Numbered from the stretch's first letter, positions 5,740 through 37,612 are shown. The stretch: DNA of 64,000 bases from an uncultured Candidatus Saccharibacteria bacterium (GCA_964521095.1 CAZFPJ010000001.1:132149-196148); one strand, 5' to 3'. Made by a program: numbers and translations. The notes: a model not told the origin generated them from the sequence alone.

Positions 5740-7407
5740 CTATTTACGGTAAAAATAATTATCGATAATGGGATGTGGCCAAGTGGTAAGGCACCTGGTT
5801 TTGGTCCAGGCATTCGGGGGTTCGAATCCCTCCATCCCAGCCATTTTCAGGAAAAGTTTGGAATTGTCGCTCTCACGAGCGATTTTTTCATTTGTAGATT
5901 TCAATTCTTGCCACAGGCAAAAACCGCTTTCCGCCCCCTTTCGGAAAGCGGTTTTTGAGCCAGCCCCGACAGCTTTTTTATCGCCAACGGCGATGAGGGT
6001 TTTACCTCGCATTGCGAGGTTCGAGCCAAAGATTTCCGACAAAACGGCTTTTTGTCCGTTGTAATCGTTGGTATCAACGATTTTACAGATAGATTGTGCG
6101 GTTTCCAGCCAATTTCGCATAGGTTCTAACCAAGAATTTTGGTTAGCTTGTAGATTAGCCAAACTTTCCTCTAAACTTTTCTTTTCGCTCAAAATCTCCG
6201 ATTTTTTCGCCAAAAAAGTTTGGCGGTCAATGTCTTGGTCTAAATAACTGTCTAGCAAAATCTTTTGTTTGCTGTTGAGCCGGGCAATCTCGTCTTTTAG
6301 ATTTGCTACGGCGGACACGTTGTCCGCATTTTCGGCTTGCTCGTCCTCTGCCATTTTATTGGTCATAAAATTATACACTTTTTCAGACATGGCATAGTCG
6401 CTGAGCAGCGCCGAAATCTGCGGTAACAAATCTTTTTCACGAATTGCTGGCTCAACGCATTTAATGGCTTTGTTTTTGCGAGAGCAGCGATAATACGTCC
6501 AACTATGTATGTTGCCGTTTGCCTGCGTTTTGGTTTTTGTTTCGGCTGTTATTGCCATACCGCAACAAGCACAGCGTAGAACGCCTAAAAACGGAATTGG
6601 TTGCTTGGTTTGCGGTTTCTGGTGTCCTCGCTGGTCAATAACCACTTGGACTTTGTCCCATAGCGACTTTGACACGATCGGCTCGTGCCGACCCTCGTGG
6701 AGTTCGCCGTTATAGATAAAATGTCCGTAGTAAAAAGGGTTTTGTAAAATGCTTTTTACTTTGTCGTCCTTAAATAATTTTCCGCCACTGGTAATTGCTC
6801 TGTTTTCTTGTAAAAAATCGGCTATATCTGCCATTGTTTTATCGCCACCAGCGTATAGCTCAAACATTTGTTTCACAAGTGGTGAATACCGCTTGTCTAG
6901 AATAATTGTTTTTATGCGAGTGTCATTTAGGTAGCCGAACGGAGCGATAGACGGAAAATCACCGTTGCGGACTTTTGCCCTTAAACCTCGCTTGGCGTTT
7001 TCGCTCAAATTATCTACATAATACTTGGACTGACCAAACATAATAGACAACATAAACTTACCTTGACTGGTGTTCTCAAACTGGAAAATTGGAAAACGCA
7101 GATAATTGAGCGATGTTTGGTCTAACAAATAGATAATTTGTCCGCCGTCAATGGAGTTGCGAGCCAAGCGGTCGGGGTGCCACGCCAAAATGCCGTTGGC
7201 TTCGCCATTTTCAATTCTTTTAATCATAGAATTGAAAATTGGTCGTCCTGGATTTTTGGCGGTGCGTTTTTCTATAAATTCGTCAATAACCATTAAATGA
7301 TTATCTCTCGCAAACTTGCGGAGTTCCGCAAGTTGAGCGTCAATGCTCAAAACCTGCTTATCTTCCGTATCGGTACTTTTGCGAGCATACAAGATATATT
7401 TTTCCAT
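5740..7407 (-). CDS. large serine recombinase (resolvase/integrase family)
   Basis: The N-terminus MEKYILYARKSTD...QLAELRKFA is a resolvase catalytic domain with the nucleophile Ser in YARKST. It is followed by a recombinase domain, a Cys-x2-Cys...C zinc ribbon and a long coiled coil. A strong RBS (AAGGGGG) precedes the ATG at 7407. There is no stop in the unique DNA; the last ~84 codons run through the inverted repeat and antisense of tRNA-Gln. Confidence 0.85.
   Translation of the reverse strand: MEKYILYARKSTDTEDKQVLSIDAQLAELRKFARDNHLMVIDEFIEKRTAKNPGRPIFNSMIKRIENGEANGILAWHPDRLARNSIDGGQIIYLLDQTSLNYLRFPIFQFENTSQGKFMLSIMFGQSKYYVDNLSENAKRGLRAKVRNGDFPSIAPFGYLNDTRIKTIILDKRYSPLVKQMFELYAGGDKTMADIADFLQENRAITSGGKLFKDDKVKSILQNPFYYGHFIYNGELHEGRHEPIVSKSLWDKVQVVIDQRGHQKPQTKQPIPFLGVLRCACCGMAITAETKTKTQANGNIHSWTYYRCSRKNKAIKCVEPAIREKDLLPQISALLSDYAMSEKVYNFMTNKMAEDEQAENADNVSAVANLKDEIARLNSKQKILLDSYLDQDIDRQTFLAKKSEILSEKKSLEESLANLQANQNSWLEPMRNWLETAQSICKIVDTNDYNGQKAVLSEIFGSNLAMRGKTLIAVGDKKAVGAGSKTAFRKGAESGFCLWQELKSTNEKIARESDNSKLFLKMAGMEGFEPPNAWTKTRCLTTWPHPIIDNYFYRK
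5769..5843 (+). tRNA. tRNA-Gln (anticodon TTG)
   Basis: 75-nt cloverleaf with U1:A72, acceptor TGGGATG/CATCCCA, a GCC/GGC D-stem like E. coli tRNA-Gln, anticodon loop TTTTGGT (anticodon TTG), T-loop TTCGAAT and a 3' GCCA. Confidence 0.8.
5841..6003. repeat. inverted repeat A (left copy), 163 bp, perfect reverse complement of 7566-7728
   Basis: Checked base by base: RC(5841-6003) is identical to 7566-7728. It starts at the CCA of tRNA-Gln. Confidence 0.9.
5920..5957. terminator. bidirectional rho-independent terminator inside inverted repeat A
   Basis: Perfect 14-bp stem AAAACCGCTTTCCG/CGGAAAGCGGTTTT with an 8-nt loop, flanked by an A-run on one side and a T-run on the other. It lies downstream of tRNA-Gln. 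Confidence 0.6.
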
Positions 7408-7442
7408 TTTTACCCCCTTAAAACTTAAAAAGCCGACCTGGT

Positions 7443-7522
7443 GCAACACAATTCAGATAAACTAAACTGTTCCAAGTCGGCTTTTTAAGCCAAGAAAAAA
7501 GTTTATCTATAAATTGTGTTGC
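7443..7522. promoter_or_regulatory. palindromic element upstream of the recombinase start
   Basis: GCAACACAATT-CAGATAAACT ... AGTTTATCTA-TAAATTGTGTTGC is a ~21-bp imperfect inverted repeat with ~40 bp spacing. It lies in the 5' region of the recombinase gene and is a candidate operator or accessory site. Confidence 0.35.
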
Positions 7523-7565
7523 CCTTTTATTATACGACTTTTGCTCGGTTTTGCGTTAGCAAAAC

Positions 7566-7728
7566 AAAACCCTCATCGCCGTTGGCGATAAAAAAGCTGT
7601 CGGGGCTGGCTCAAAAACCGCTTTCCGAAAGGGGGCGGAAAGCGGTTTTTGCCTGTGGCAAGAATTGAAATCTACAAATGAAAAAATCGCTCGTGAGAGC
7701 GACAATTCCAAACTTTTCCTGAAAATGG
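7566..7728. repeat. inverted repeat A' (right copy)
   Basis: Reverse complement of 5841-6003 (163/163). Confidence 0.9.
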
Positions 7729-7847
7729 CTCACTTATACGAGTTTGCCCGAACCTATTTTGCGACCAAATGCGAGAAATGAGATTTTCGGCGGGTCGGGT
7801 CGGGGGCGACCCGCCGAACTGCTTCACAGATTTTTTGTCCACCTGAA
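7729..7847. repeat. inverted repeat B (left copy), ~119 bp, reverse complement of 8833-8951
   Basis: RC(8833-8951) matches 7727-7845 with no mismatch seen. It is contiguous with repeat A'. Confidence 0.85.
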
Positions 7848-7859
7848 TTTCATTAAATA

Positions 7860-8387
7860 TTGTATAATTTACTCATGAATAAAAGTCATCAACAAGCAAA
7901 ACGACTAACCACGAAAGATGTACAGCGTATGTCTAATGATGAGATCATCAAGTATGTATATCTTGAGCATAAAAGATTGAAAATGCCCGTTGAAGATGTC
8001 TGGGAACAACTTATTGATAATTTTGGAAAGCAAACTATAAGCGATATGCTCGGCGGCAGCGAAGATTCCTTGAATAGTACTGAAAATTTTGACGGTGATT
8101 CAAAATTCGGAGCGATAATTATGGTCTATGCTATTGTTTTTGGGATTATTTGGTTCATTTTTAACAGTCTTATGAATAATAAGTTTGAAGCAATGCAATT
8201 TGCTATCGTTGTTTGTGGTATCGCATCAACCTTAATCACCATATTGTTCATGAATGCTACCGGTAAAAATGAGAGAAATTATCTAAATGCTGTAAGTAAA
8301 ATACAAAGAGCCTACTCCGTATATATAAACAAAGGCTTCAACGATCTAATGGGTAGACCATTAGACTATGTAAAAGATGACAACTAG
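7860..8387 (+). CDS. hypothetical membrane protein (two predicted TM helices)
   Basis: 175 aa with a hydrophilic N-terminal ~90 aa followed by two hydrophobic helices (IIMVYAIVFGIIWFIF and FAIVVCGIASTLITILF). It overlaps the next ORF by 11 nt. Confidence 0.4.
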   Translation: MYNLLMNKSHQQAKRLTTKDVQRMSNDEIIKYVYLEHKRLKMPVEDVWEQLIDNFGKQTISDMLGGSEDSLNSTENFDGDSKFGAIIMVYAIVFGIIWFIFNSLMNNKFEAMQFAIVVCGIASTLITILFMNATGKNERNYLNAVSKIQRAYSVYINKGFNDLMGRPLDYVKDDN

Positions 8388-8829
8388 GCATTATCCGTCA
8401 TTCGTCAATGACAAAACAGATGAAGATAAGCTAGCAAACATAATAGTCAGCACATCTTTGCTAGATGAGGTTTTGTCCCTGTGGCTAACTAATCATTTTT
8501 TGAAGATTGATGGCACAAAAAAGAACGAGAATGATAGAGATATTCTTGAGAAGTTAATTTTAAGCAAATTAGGTTTTAGGCAGAAAAGCGAAGTGGTCTG
8601 TAAATTGCTGAATAGCAATTCTAGCCCAGTAAAATTGAAATCAAATTTATTTAGAATTGGCGAGATAAGAAATCAAATAGCTCATAATACTGGTTGGCTC
8701 GGAATACCTAATAACATAAAAGAAGTCTACAGCGAGTTTGATGGGTTAATGGTAGAGCTAGAAAGCTTTATAGAACTAACTTATTCTGAGTTTCAGCATG
8801 ACATGGATCATGCATATAATCCCCAATAG
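8377..8829 (+). CDS. hypothetical protein with an HEPN-like R-x4-H motif (candidate toxin/abortive-infection effector)
   Basis: 150 aa, predicted mostly alpha-helical, with GEIRNQIAHN (R-x4-H) in the C-terminal half. It appears co-operonic with the upstream membrane protein and both lie between the perfect inverted repeats B/B'. Confidence 0.3.
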   Translation: MTTRHYPSFVNDKTDEDKLANIIVSTSLLDEVLSLWLTNHFLKIDGTKKNENDRDILEKLILSKLGFRQKSEVVCKLLNSNSSPVKLKSNLFRIGEIRNQIAHNTGWLGIPNNIKEVYSEFDGLMVELESFIELTYSEFQHDMDHAYNPQ

Positions 8830-8832
8830 AAA

Positions 8833-8951
8833 CAGGTGGACAAAAAATCTGTGAAGCAGTTCGGCGGGTCGCCCCCGACCCGACCCGCCGAAAATCTCAT
8901 TTCTCGCATTTGGTCGCAAAATAGGTTCGGGCAAACTCGTATAAGTGAGCC
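8833..8951. repeat. inverted repeat B' (right copy)
   Basis: Reverse complement of repeat B. It ends in GTGAGCCA, giving AGCCA at 8948-8952. Confidence 0.85.
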
Positions 8952-8996
8952 AAGTATCGTTTTGAATTCCAAAGGTCAAGAAGGGAAACTACAGCC

Positions 8997-37251: not shown

Positions 37252-37326
37252 TCCCGGGTAGCTCAATGGTGGAGCAAGAAGCTGTTAACTTCGAGGCTGT
37301 CGGTTCGAATCCGACCCCGGGAGCCA
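37252..37326 (+). tRNA. tRNA-Asn (anticodon GTT)
   Basis: 75-nt cloverleaf with acceptor TCCCGGG/CCCGGGA, anticodon loop CTGTTAA, T-arm GTCGG-TTCGAAT-CCGAC and 3' GCCA. Confidence 0.8.
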
Positions 37327-37382: not shown

Positions 37383-37612
37383 GACTTACCCCTTATCTGT
37401 TAGCTGGTTCGAGTCCGGCTTCCCTATATTCATAAACGATAGTCTTGTTGTTGGAACCGTCAAAAGGATCGAAGGTTGTCGACTTACTCCTGTAAATTGG
37501 TTCTATAAGTGACCGTAAAGCCCCATAGTAATCAAGTGGCGAGAAAGGAGACCGGGTTCCTGGACCGATGACTGATTAGATATCTCTAATTATAATATAA
37601 ACAAGGTAGCGG

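Follow-up and report, generated by a model that had tools for sequence, protein, structure and literature searches.

Much of bacterial diversity belongs to the Patescibacteria (CPR), whose tiny genomes are regarded as poor in classical mobile elements. The stretch of DNA analyzed here (64,000 nucleotides of an uncultured Candidatus Saccharibacteria bacterium, GCA_964521095.1 CAZFPJ010000001.1:132149-196148; hereafter the window) carries a serine recombinase gene at the 3' end of a tRNA-Gln gene, together with two abutting pairs of perfect long inverted repeats. What is this arrangement, how did it come to have four repeat arms, and which of its parts can move? A sequence-only reading did not recognize the layout among described systems, and literature searches likewise gave no published description of such elements.

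Anatomy of the element

The features of the locus are listed below. Positions are counted from the first letter of the window, and attachment sites are named according to the explanation that we favor.

5844-8952: the integrated element as a whole (3.1 kb), at the CCA end of the tRNA-Gln gene
5769-5843, plus strand: tRNA-Gln(ttg), the left half of attB (ARAGORN; Rfam tRNA, 65.6 bits)
5839-5843, plus strand: core copy 1, AGCCA, the attL junction between tRNA and arm A and also the last 5 nt of tRNA-Gln
5839-6003, plus strand: arm A, the P' half of the split attP (repeat search)
5740-7407, minus strand: large serine recombinase (LSR) ORF, 555 aa from the ATG at 7407; unique body 6004-7407
7408-7565, minus strand: unique region upstream of the recombinase gene
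7566-7730, plus strand: arm A', identical to the reverse complement of arm A; it provides the P' half of the internal attP, which is intact and inverted
7726-7730, plus strand: core copy 2, TGGCT (inverted), common to arms A' and B
7726-7845, plus strand: arm B, the P half of the internal attP (repeat search)
7875-8387, plus strand: cargo gene 1, 170 aa, a predicted membrane protein
8377-8829, plus strand: cargo gene 2, 150 aa, HEPN-like
8833-8952, plus strand: arm B', identical to the reverse complement of arm B; on the attR side, it provides the P half of the split attP
8948-8952, plus strand: core copy 3, AGCCA, where arm B' meets the host flank (attR junction); the flank starts with AGTATCG

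The order is tRNA-Gln, arm A, the LSR gene on the minus strand, A', B, two cargo genes and B'. This four-arm layout at the tRNA-Gln 3' end, already described in the sequence-only reading, was confirmed by ARAGORN, Rfam and the repeat search. The A pair (5839-6003 and 7566-7730) is 165 nt long and the B pair (7726-7845 and 8833-8952) 120 nt, both with 100% identity. The perfect identity had been noticed earlier; the lengths then given, 163 and about 119 bp, are corrected to 160+5 and 115+5 nt. Both pairs take in the 5-nt core, which stands as AGCCA or TGGCT at all three junctions. A script confirmed the earlier claim that the internal segment is the exact reverse complement of B' joined to A: when 8833-8952 is followed by 5844-6003, the reverse complement is identical to the 280 nt of 7566-7845. 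Its start was correctly placed; its end lies at 7845, not 7847. Within the 64-kb window the script found no repeats of at least 40 nt other than A/A' and B/B'.

The arms are rich in signals. Arm A holds a hairpin (5866-5883) with a T-run, which is a replacement terminator for the tRNA, and a 15-bp bidirectional hairpin at about 5920-5957; on the minus strand it encodes approximately 55 codons of the recombinase ORF. Arm B includes a T-arm mimic (CCGAACC, 7748-7754), mirrored in B' as GGTTCGG at 8924-8930, a GC-rich hairpin (7786-7818), and an alternative recombinase tail, HLYEFARTYFATKCEK, with its stop codon. The region 7408-7565, where two nested palindromes lie (7424-7441/7472-7489 and 7443-7453/7512-7522), presumably holds the recombinase promoter.

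The sequence-only reading had placed the recombinase gene between repeats A and A'. This is corrected: the ORF has no stop codon inside the element and runs through arm A, the core and the antisense tRNA, so that in the isomer seen in the window antisense tRNA-Gln and the DNA upstream of it provide the last 34 codons.

The protein has the domains of a large serine recombinase, the type proposed earlier: the resolvase catalytic domain (PF00239, E=3e-21, residues 5-150), Recombinase (PF07508, E=3e-17) and Zn_ribbon_recom (PF13408, E=1.5e-9). Among 30 homologues, R9, K10 and S11 are invariant, as are the zinc-ribbon cysteines C279, C282 and C308; C317 is nearly so. Among structures and families, it comes closest to SPbeta Int, A118 Int, CcrB and XisF. 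The best PDB sequence matches, the SPbeta and A118 integrases, are of low identity (E about 1e-10). The best NCBIfam matches are CcrB (133.9 bits, cut-off 900) and XisF (114.2, cut-off 375), and CcrA gives 96.2 bits against a cut-off of 700; membership in the SCC Ccr or XisF equivalogs is rejected at scores so far under the cut-offs. An IS607-family transposase is excluded by the model score (26.5 bits against a cut-off of 110, catalytic core only), and also by the length of 555 aa, the RD and ZD domains and the long inverted repeats; enzymes of that family have about 200 aa and an N-terminal MerR-like HTH, are usually accompanied by TnpB, and their elements lack terminal inverted repeats. A small serine invertase (Hin/Gin/Pin) is ruled out by the LSR architecture and by mobility between tRNAs and flanks; the PHROGs 'DNA invertase' match is confined to the N-terminal 260 residues.

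Cargo gene 1 is preceded by an extended -10-like sequence, TGTATAAT, at 7859-7866, and domain and family searches gave no family match for it. Cargo gene 2 has an R-x4-H motif (RNQIAH) and weak matches to RiboL-PSP HEPN, Csm6 and CARF-HEPN. There are no phage genes in the 3.1-kb element, and no RDF candidate among its genes (recombinase, TM protein, HEPN-like protein). RDFs are diverse, so a host-encoded or unrecognized one is conceivable and may exist.

A family of tRNA-end elements in Patescibacteria

The element belongs to a large, apparently undescribed family of Patescibacteria. GTDB species genomes gave at least 562 relatives, most of them in Saccharibacteria and other CPR, and the family forms thousands of protein clusters. 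From these hundreds of species-genome matches and thousands of clusters it appears to be a main vehicle of accessory genes in Patescibacteria. Among 2.9 million viral contigs there were only two distant matches.

We surveyed the layout of 94 related loci from independent assemblies, nearly all from Patescibacteria. Arms of 70-180 nt, mostly 95-100% identical, flank the recombinase in 78 of the 94, and the outer arm end usually lies 5 nt inside a tRNA. In 28 of the 94 loci, a count to be read with the fact that many loci are truncated by contig ends, a further inverted-repeat pair of 47-323 nt abuts the first with an overlap of about 5 nt and surrounds 0.9-6.1 kb of cargo. The upstream arm is missing from about 5 of 85 evaluable loci. 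The window shows all three family features, namely inverted arms reaching to the tRNA end, the abutting second pair and the open ORF. Inward-reading terminators occur in 46 of 67 arms compared with 8% of shuffled arms.

Cargo is wholly different and unrelated between relatives. Anti-phage defense genes are often found in it; the family carries restriction-modification systems, Thoeris-like TIR/patatin pairs, Hhe-like helicase-nucleases and HEPN genes.

The targeted tRNAs are of 16 species, and all share the junction NNCCA, as expected from the proposal of a short core within the tRNA 3' end. The shared core is made up of the five bases that end the tRNA (position 72, the discriminator and CCA). 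LSRs exchange strands at a central dinucleotide of 2 bp with a 2-nt 3' overhang; comparisons of the junctions delimit the 5-nt common core. In most of 52 distinct loci the identity between the tRNA junction and the internal site starts at the last 5 tRNA nt, and in some it reaches a few nt deeper into the tRNA. On these alignments the recurrence of AGCCA at the junctions, first remarked in the sequence-only reading, is not due to chance.

Half-site logos from the same 52 loci place TCGAACC at +14-20 in the tRNA and at +18-24 in arm B', i.e., the T-arm mimic of the B-side half-site is displaced 4 nt outward relative to the tRNA. SPbeta Int binds attB half-sites 4 bp nearer to the center than those of attP, and for other LSRs the difference is 5 bp (PMC11722253). 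Judged by its motifs, the half-site anatomy matches LSR attP versus attB spacing in the left halves only; the logos show no T-arm-like motif in the A-side half-site or in the host flank. Recognition of the universal tRNA T-arm by LSRs, with crossover at the CCA end and a mimic in attP at P-type spacing, would be unusual. LSRs are genome-engineering tools, and an attB made of tRNA features could mean ready-made landing sites in many genomes.

A probable attP duplication, natural isomers and competing explanations

We consider it probable that this is an LSR-driven integrative element whose attP was duplicated in inverted orientation. Integration would occur at the tRNA 3' end, by crossover within the last five tRNA bases, from an attP composed of B', core and A, in which the B' half-site copies the tRNA T-arm at P-type spacing. 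Each element would carry two inverted copies of the attP region of about 280 bp; integration would split one of them into attL (tRNA and A) and attR (B' and flank), leaving A'/B whole. All four arms are explained by a single duplication of attP. The arms would restore the CCA end of the tRNA and supply a new terminator. Recombination between the outer sites would free a circle in which two inverted repeats divide two unique segments. Such an inverted duplication, giving two invertible modules, is unusual. Since the recombinase and the cargo each lie between inverted repeats with inverted cores, either can flip and leave the junction sequences unchanged.

That the modules are independently invertible had been predicted, and natural isomers of both were found. 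The cargo block is inverted in locus L009 relative to L003 and L005, with the remainder 99.9% identical, and the recombinase module is reversed in L186, L185, L002, L034, L037 and L093. Isomers occur at a ratio of about 9:1 rather than 1:1, which needs selection or a bias. The cargo and B' arm of the window have a 99.5% identical copy against a different flank, and flanks are not conserved among relatives. Logan contigs from the source runs break at the repeats. Arms are 95-100% identical within elements and approximately 85-90% between elements, a sign of concerted evolution, probably by recombination between arms. The copy at another flank and these identities bear out the earlier suggestion of recent activity or gene conversion. 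Homogenization of the arms goes beyond LSR chemistry, so a second process is needed.

We take one rival seriously, though we lean against it: integration takes place as above, and both the inversions and the arm identity are due solely to RecA-type homologous recombination of the host, a flip-flop with gene conversion like that of chloroplast inverted repeats, with the recombinase limited to attP x attB and the internal attP idle in situ. The arm identities within and between elements require gene conversion. The inversion breakpoint mapped for L009/L003 falls within the outer 46 nt of an arm that is 94 nt long. Perfect identity runs longest there, in an arm otherwise 93.6% identical, so the breakpoint fits homologous recombination as well as site-specific exchange. 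The site rules of canonical LSRs also agree with this rival (PMC11722253): inversion by attL x attP or attP x attR and excision free of an RDF are unexpected because these enzymes are limited to attP x attB, and to attL x attR with an RDF. Against it, the core of about 5 nt ends the arms and overlaps the pairs in nearly all loci, the internal junction is kept as a complete site, and free flip-flop does not predict the 9:1 orientation bias. Moreover, there are LSR transposases (TnpX type) that recombine several combinations of sites and need no RDF. Under the favored reading, excision of a circle would be expected, and the recombinase itself may perform the inversions.

Three further explanations fare much worse. 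A fixed phase-variation switch, with the serine recombinase as an invertase controlling cargo expression, would account for the inversion isomers and for repeats inverted as in Hin/Gin-type switches, and is nevertheless very unlikely. Its enzyme would be an LSR of 555 aa and not an invertase of about 190 aa, and it is largely refuted by the distribution: close relatives lie at 16 tRNA species between unrelated flanks, a 99.5% identical copy has a different flank, and cargo is unrelated between elements. Each module also appears to hold its own promoter region in its unique segment, so that a flip would bring no obvious change of expression. Somewhat less credible still are two adjacent terminal-inverted-repeat transposons, one with a resolvase and one with cargo, moved by some transposase other than the serine recombinase. 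Each module does lie between long inverted repeats, and arrays of at least three such modules exist (L029); yet there is no transposase gene, there are no target-site duplications, and insertion is always at the tRNA NNCCA. The pairs share the core base for base, and the outer halves, when joined, give the reverse complement of the internal junction exactly; this is a signature of conservative site-specific recombination. The idea that an assembler made the inverted duplication around a simple attL-element-attR insertion could draw on the perfect repeats in a metagenome-derived contig and on the many related contigs that end within arms. It is ruled out for practical purposes, since independent assemblies have imperfect arms: the four-arm layout recurs in SPAdes, MEGAHIT and JGI assemblies of unrelated samples, often with arm identities of 82-99% (97.6% and 94% in L001, 92% in L019, 82% and 94% in L003), the arm sequences are conserved as half-sites, and the ORF is open across the arm.

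The open recombinase frame and related systems

Under the favored reading, the spare attP may keep a complete 3' end of the recombinase gene in store, or may permit integration in either orientation. The recombinase frame is stop-free in 66 of 67 distinct arms, compared with 20 and 22 of 67 for the other two frames. The gene has two possible ends, antisense tRNA or a conserved tail from arm B. In the common isomer, to which the window belongs, the frame continues into antisense tRNA; after a flip it enters arm B and acquires the tail [FL]Y..[AV]RT[YHF]F followed by a stop. This alternative tail is conserved, with its stop 13-17 codons beyond the core, in 32 of 40 loci, and in any excised circle the recombinase would likewise end in it. 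As the gene has no stop of its own, its C-terminus depends on the state of integration.

It is tempting, if doubtful, to see in the spare inverted attP a stored 3' end that acts as an RDF-free switch of directionality or stability. With attP inside the ORF, integration via the copy downstream of the gene would swap the conserved native tail for residues of antisense tRNA. This replacement would lock or retune the enzyme, and a module flip between the A arms would rejoin the gene to the stored tail and re-arm it. Such a switch would account for the 66 of 67 open frames, the conserved tail and stop position, and the roughly 9:1 excess of the isomer with the tRNA tail. Three unusual features, namely the reading of the tRNA T-arm, the inverted attP duplication and a recombinase gene with no stop of its own, together make RDF-free control of directionality directly testable.

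LSRs of temperate phages (SPbeta SprA/YokA, Listeria A118/LI Int, phiC31, Bxb1) share the catalytic, recombinase and zinc-ribbon domains, a putative coiled coil and short asymmetric sites with the window's element, in which the zinc-ribbon-side motif is shifted by 4 nt between P and B, as for SPbeta Int. Unlike theirs, this element is non-phage and only 3 kb long, with a recombinase and one or two cargo genes, no RDF gene, the tRNA CCA end as target and an attP that is duplicated in inverted orientation and lies inside the 3' end of the recombinase ORF. The recombinases of the staphylococcal cassette chromosome (SCC), CcrA/B/C, and XisF are LSRs too, and they likewise move or excise cassettes of non-phage cargo at one particular place in the chromosome. 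However, SCC inserts at the 3' end of rlmH and has direct repeats, XisF excises a fixed developmental element (the Anabaena fdxN-element), and both lack a spare inverted attP and a recombinase ORF crossing the attachment site.

In the archaeal integrases of SSV type and in integration-dependent immunity of mycobacteriophages, attP also lies in a gene of the element and the product changes on integration. SSV-type elements target tRNA genes as well. Both systems use tyrosine recombinases, and the gene is split or truncated and restored by excision only; here the C-terminal tail alone is swapped, and an intact spare 3' end is retained, inverted, in the element. The predicted circle resembles the 2-micron plasmid with FLP/FRT, in that two site-bearing inverted repeats divide two unique segments and give two isomers. 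FLP is a tyrosine recombinase, and the 2-micron circle replicates autonomously and amplifies its copy number through inversion; the likeness is architectural only, and the window's element has no replication gene. Finally, in Hin, Gin and Pin/PinQ a serine catalytic domain stands beside an inverted-repeat segment found in both orientations in nature, as here. These invertases differ in having about 190 aa with a C-terminal HTH, an enhancer with Fis and 26-bp sites, and they are not mobile among tRNAs.

Organisation of the element and its recurrence

The element 3' of the tRNA-Gln gene carries a large serine recombinase (LSR) and two cargo genes. Its parts are as follows.

Features of the element in the window
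5769-5843: tRNA-Gln(ttg) gene (ARAGORN and Rfam)
5839-6003 and 7566-7730: inverted pair A/A', 165 nt, perfect (repeat search)
7726-7845 and 8833-8952: inverted pair B/B', 120 nt, perfect (repeat search)
Between A and A', minus strand: LSR gene with the domains Resolvase, Recombinase and Zn_ribbon_recom
Between B and B': cargo gene 1, a 170-aa membrane protein without a family match
Between B and B': cargo gene 2, a 150-aa HEPN-like protein with an RNQIAH motif; its HEPN matches are weak

Repeat search, ARAGORN and Rfam thus confirmed the order reported by the sequence-only reading: tRNA-Gln, A, recombinase, A', B, two ORFs, B'. According to a script, the two pairs are the only repeats of at least 40 nt in the 64-kb window. 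Rfam has no match over the element region besides the tRNA. The reading had also described the internal segment as the exact reverse complement of B' joined to A, with AGCCA at both outer junctions and TGGCT where the inner arms meet. Both points hold: by script, the internal 280 bp (7566-7845) are the reverse complement of B' (8833-8952) plus A (5844-6003). Both inverted pairs overlap in TGGCT (7726-7730); its reverse complement, AGCCA, closes both the tRNA (5839-5843) and arm B' (8948-8952). A point absent from that description is the recombinase ORF, which runs from 7407 down to 5740: it has no stop codon within the element and continues via arm A and the core into the antisense strand of the tRNA.

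We scripted a layout survey over 94 loci. Inverted arms of 70-180 nt, mostly 95-100% identical, surround the recombinase in 78 of them, and the outer arm usually ends 5 nt within the tRNA gene. A second inverted-repeat pair (47-323 nt), which abuts the inner arm with an overlap of about 5 nt and encloses 0.9-6.1 kb of cargo, is present in 28 of the 94 loci. In most of the remaining survey loci the contig ends at the arms; the upstream arm is absent in about five evaluable loci. The four-arm layout recurs in relatives from independent assemblies, and arm imperfections seen in unrelated assemblies rule out an assembly artefact as its source.

Relatives of the element
L001 (JGI contig of 606 kb): tRNA-Gln target; recombinase identity 88%; arm identities 97.6% and 94%; cargo an HD/CYTH protein
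L011, L012, L015: recombinase about 75% identical; tRNA-Leu(tag) target; arms of 157 and 117 nt, perfect; cargo genes as in the window
L003-L010: tRNA-Tyr target; arms 82% and 94% identical

Just past its target tRNA, locus L001 also has a degenerate partial copy of the tRNA-Gln 5' half (7610-7644 vs 7734-7768, 86% identical).

Within an element the two arms usually agree fully; between elements, homologous arms diverge by 10-15%. Core exchange by a serine recombinase is unable to homogenise arms, which implies gene conversion between them. Compared with shuffled sequence, arm A folds significantly better (z = -3.6); it provides the tRNA with its CCA end and, about 20 nt downstream, with a terminator-like hairpin (5866-5883 plus a T-run). 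Such inward-reading hairpins occur in 46 of 67 family arms, compared with 8% of shuffled arms. A 33-nt GC-rich hairpin of the B arm (TTCGGCGGGTCGGGTCGGGGGCGACCCGCCGAA; 7786-7818 and 8860-8892, also in L001, L011 and L017) shows 100% identity between elements whose remaining arm sequence agrees to about 85%, which suggests a separately constrained structure. Two nested palindromes (7424-7441/7472-7489, 18 nt, 94% identity; 7443-7453/7512-7522, 11 nt, 100%) lie within 7424-7522, in unique sequence 5' of the recombinase start, and could be an operator or a 5'-UTR structure.

Attachment sites and the proposed spare attP

We compared the junction of tRNA and arm A with the internal site by alignment for 52 distinct loci. 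In most, the two match from the final five tRNA bases onward, and in some the match reaches a few nucleotides deeper into the tRNA. The five-base core comprises position 72, the discriminator and CCA (for example, CACCA, CTCCA, AGCCA, TACCA). The proposal that a serine recombinase uses a short core at the tRNA 3' end is borne out by the recurrence of this core over the aligned loci and by the sixteen tRNA species targeted across the family.

The host flank past B' is not conserved and often holds the apparent original tRNA terminator. Arm B' itself is strongly conserved, with the family consensus ..TTTAC.AC...GCTCGAACCTATTTT outward from the core; the tRNA-side consensus is ...GGA.TCGAACC. In the position-specific family consensus the TCGAACC block lies at +18-24 in arm B' and at +14-20 in the tRNA. 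P-type half-sites of LSRs are shifted outward relative to B-type half-sites by 5 bp in general and by 4 bp for the SPbeta integrase (PMC11722253). Of the solved structures, that of the SPbeta integrase is the nearest by sequence. Since the 4-nt outward shift of TCGAACC equals this known difference, we read B' joined to A as the putative attP and tRNA joined to flank as the putative attB. Then tRNA joined to A would be attL, B' joined to flank would be attR, and the internal junction of A' and B would be a complete attP in inverted orientation. The predicted empty attB of the window locus is …CCATCCCAGCCA followed directly by AGTATCGTTTTG…. Only an A-rich start is common to arm A and the flank; the right half-sites are therefore different or weak. 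Comparison of these sites gives good support to a model in which the element would integrate at the NNCCA end of tRNA genes via T-arm recognition.

In a few elements (L092:8460-8600, L049:8511-8570, L026, L090) the adjoining DNA is not a full tRNA but a short tRNA 3' remnant (…GGATTCCTGCCTCCGCAGCCA in L092) or non-tRNA sequence, which suggests the use of pseudo-sites. Elsewhere in the window, a T-arm-like fragment (GCTGGTTCGAGTCCGGCTTCCC, 37400-37425) follows tRNA-Asn (37252-37326) at a distance of about 75 nt. ARAGORN makes no tRNA call for the fragment, which may be a tRNA 3' remnant of an older integration.

One feature would account for all four arms: an attP region of about 280 bp held twice, the copies being inverted relative to each other. 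Integration would cut one copy and leave the other whole between recombinase and cargo. That the element has such a spare inverted attP, and hence two putatively invertible modules, is well supported by its sequence. The duplication leaves each module flanked by inverted repeats and inverted cores, and a flip of either module would restore the same three junction sequences. The outer sites are directly oriented, so their recombination would yield attB and a circle in which two inverted attP copies separate two unique segments. This predicted layout resembles the 2-micron plasmid, as an architectural analogy only. The junction of B' with A has the same sequence as the internal site and therefore does not by itself identify a circle. 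We also considered each module as its own circle with a palindromic site and rejected this, because the cores around a single module are inverted and conservative recombination is unable to excise it.

Locus L029 (2250-8518) is an array of three serial modules bounded by inverted repeats, two with cargo and one with the recombinase. Its cores alternate in orientation (ACCA, TGGTG, CACCA, TGGTG), and beyond the last core there is no tRNA and no recognisable arm. Such arrays would fit serial integration of two-module circles. A 4.9-kb contig (L043:1-4909) has perfect 125-nt inverted terminal repeats that enclose cargo and an arm-flanked recombinase; its structure fits neither a simple circle nor either integrated isomer.

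Natural isomers and the open recombinase frame

Both modules are found in both orientations, and one orientation of the recombinase prevails by about 9:1. The independent invertibility suggested by the sequence-only reading is thereby seen in natural isomers. For the cargo, the tRNA-Tyr locus L009 differs from L003 and L005 by an inversion of the entire cargo block and otherwise matches them at 99.9% identity; its B arm retains all private variants, and the flank switches within the outermost 46 nt, core TGGTG included. For the recombinase, 71 loci share the orientation of the window, with the gene running into the antisense tRNA. The flipped arrangement occurs in L186, where tRNA-Gln(+) at 719-793 and an arm at 789-921 are followed by a recombinase that points off the tRNA into the other arm and has a B-type tail. 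In L185 and L002 the recombinase is followed by a joined to b, cargo, and b' joined to the flank, and in L034, L037 and L093 the tRNA lies upstream of the recombinase. Among 113 full-length homologue representatives, 9 have a B-encoded tail and at least 85 a tRNA-antisense tail.

These isomers have a strong rival explanation, in which host recombination, not the recombinase, flips the modules and homogenises the arms. We regard it as quite possible, though less likely than not. Canonical LSR rules permit only attP x attB, or attL x attR given a recombination directionality factor (RDF) (PMC11722253), and our analysis found neither an RDF gene nor signs of non-canonical site pairs. The one mapped breakpoint, that of the L009 cargo inversion, is equally compatible with site-specific exchange and homologous recombination.

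The tRNA-Tyr elements (L003:5022-7081, also L004-L010) have two cargo blocks split by a partial, core-less copy of the inner arm (5879-5944). Their recombinase is truncated to 498 aa in some samples and their A arms have decayed to 82% identity. This looks like an ageing copy whose cargo still occurs inverted.

We also used exact-protein look-ups of the flanking AsnS gene and the window cargo to reach contigs of the source runs (Logan, ENA). The window genome is carried by runs SRR14271335 and SRR14271331 (Logan look-ups), and all Logan/ENA contigs obtained in this way break at the arms. The predicted flipped-isomer protein (539 aa) had no exact match in a collection of 15 billion proteins. 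One Logan contig (L097:1-60, SRR14271335) matches the window to 5795 and continues into a different tRNA-Gln 3' half, whose anticodon stem has a compensatory change and whose acceptor end is CCTCCCCA. The contig represents a second strain or is a chimeric unitig.

The recombinase frame lacks a stop in 66 of 67 distinct arms, the remaining one being a decayed copy, while the other two frames are open in 20 and 22 of the 67. From the sequence, the C-terminus of the enzyme would certainly change with integration state and module orientation. Homologues share the arm-encoded stretch at their C-termini, and it is followed either by antisense-tRNA translation (…G[FLI]EP…) or by a tail like …LYEFARTYFATKCEK, the outcome of reading arm A' into arm B. 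For 40 loci that have the common isomer we constructed the hypothetical flipped ORF. The conserved tail [FL]Y..[AV]RT[YHF]F closes 32 of these ORFs (80%), at 13-17 codons beyond the core; actual tRNA-antisense tails are 4-125 codons long. The native tail of the window recombinase in the flipped isomer would be …KMAHLYEFARTYFATKCEK.

We favour the inference that the spare attP keeps a whole recombinase 3' end, so that flipping would toggle between native-tail and tRNA-tail enzyme. This would explain why the frame is open, why tail and stop position are conserved, and why one orientation prevails 9:1. The family makes RDF-free control of directionality testable. Orientation-independent integration and module shuffling are equally allowed as functions of the spare attP. 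Selection on the arm-encoded amino acids is not demonstrable: the three codon positions have similar substitution rates in the arm (0.244/0.225/0.252), unlike the gene body with its third-position excess, and constraints at the DNA level confound this comparison. Since the half-site that mimics the T-arm also encodes the conserved tail, protein-level and DNA-level selection are inseparable there. Non-stop mRNA with tmRNA tagging was rejected as a general cause of the open frame, since a terminator-like hairpin in the direction of the recombinase is found in only 22 of 67 arms (2% of shuffles); it is possible in some elements.

Mobility, hosts and cargo

The sequence-only reading had taken the perfect repeats as a sign of recent activity or gene conversion. 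The second is implied by arm identity within elements. As for mobility, L099 and L100 carry cargo and a B' arm 99.5% identical to those of the window against a wholly different flank. That reading had also proposed a search for related tRNA-Gln loci without the insertion. We scanned metagenomes with AsnS for syntenic empty tRNA-Gln sites. Synteny is not conserved, and tRNA-Gln was found only in L103 (AsnS 86% identical), followed by unrelated DNA; this tRNA-Gln is unoccupied but is not a strict empty-site allele.

Recombinase homologues of 530-570 aa number in the thousands. A scan with one genome per GTDB species gave at least 562 relatives, overwhelmingly in Saccharibacteria and other Patescibacteria; the few relative-bearing contigs binned as Proteobacteria or other phyla are probably mis-binned. 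Bins of contigs with family members include Sphingomonadaceae, Gammaproteobacteria, Syntrophaceae, Phycisphaerae and others (L017, L031, L033, L034 and further loci), and the gene content of these contigs suggests mis-binned Patescibacteria rather than a true host range. The family is almost absent from viral contigs. It is of high interest for its abundance in a little-understood branch of the bacteria.

The window enzyme is related by sequence to the SPbeta and A118 integrases, Ccr recombinases and XisF, yet falls far under their family cut-offs. It belongs neither to the small invertases nor to IS607 nor to the prophage integrase systems. The sequence-only reading did not recognise the layout among described systems, and our full-text literature search agrees: it returned no described counterpart of the inverted duplicate attP, of an ORF crossing the crossover site, of the T-arm mimic, or of a CCA-end target common to all tRNA types. 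We classify the element among the LSR integrative elements.

Cargo differs among close relatives and is often related to anti-phage defence.

Cargo types in the family
NgoFVII-type restriction enzyme, C5 methylase, Z1 protein and Vsr-like gene
Type I-like methylase and specificity subunit
ThsB-like TIR protein and SLOG-patatin effector
Hhe/PDC-S37-like helicase-nuclease
Schlafen/AlbA protein
Transporters and GNAT proteins

Two further loci carry housekeeping-type cargo, whose names we judged from the sequences rather than from family models: L027 (3749-6697) has prolyl-tRNA synthetase (ProRS) and glutamate 5-kinase (ProB), and L076 has an IS-like transposase along with fragments of tryptophanyl-tRNA synthetase.
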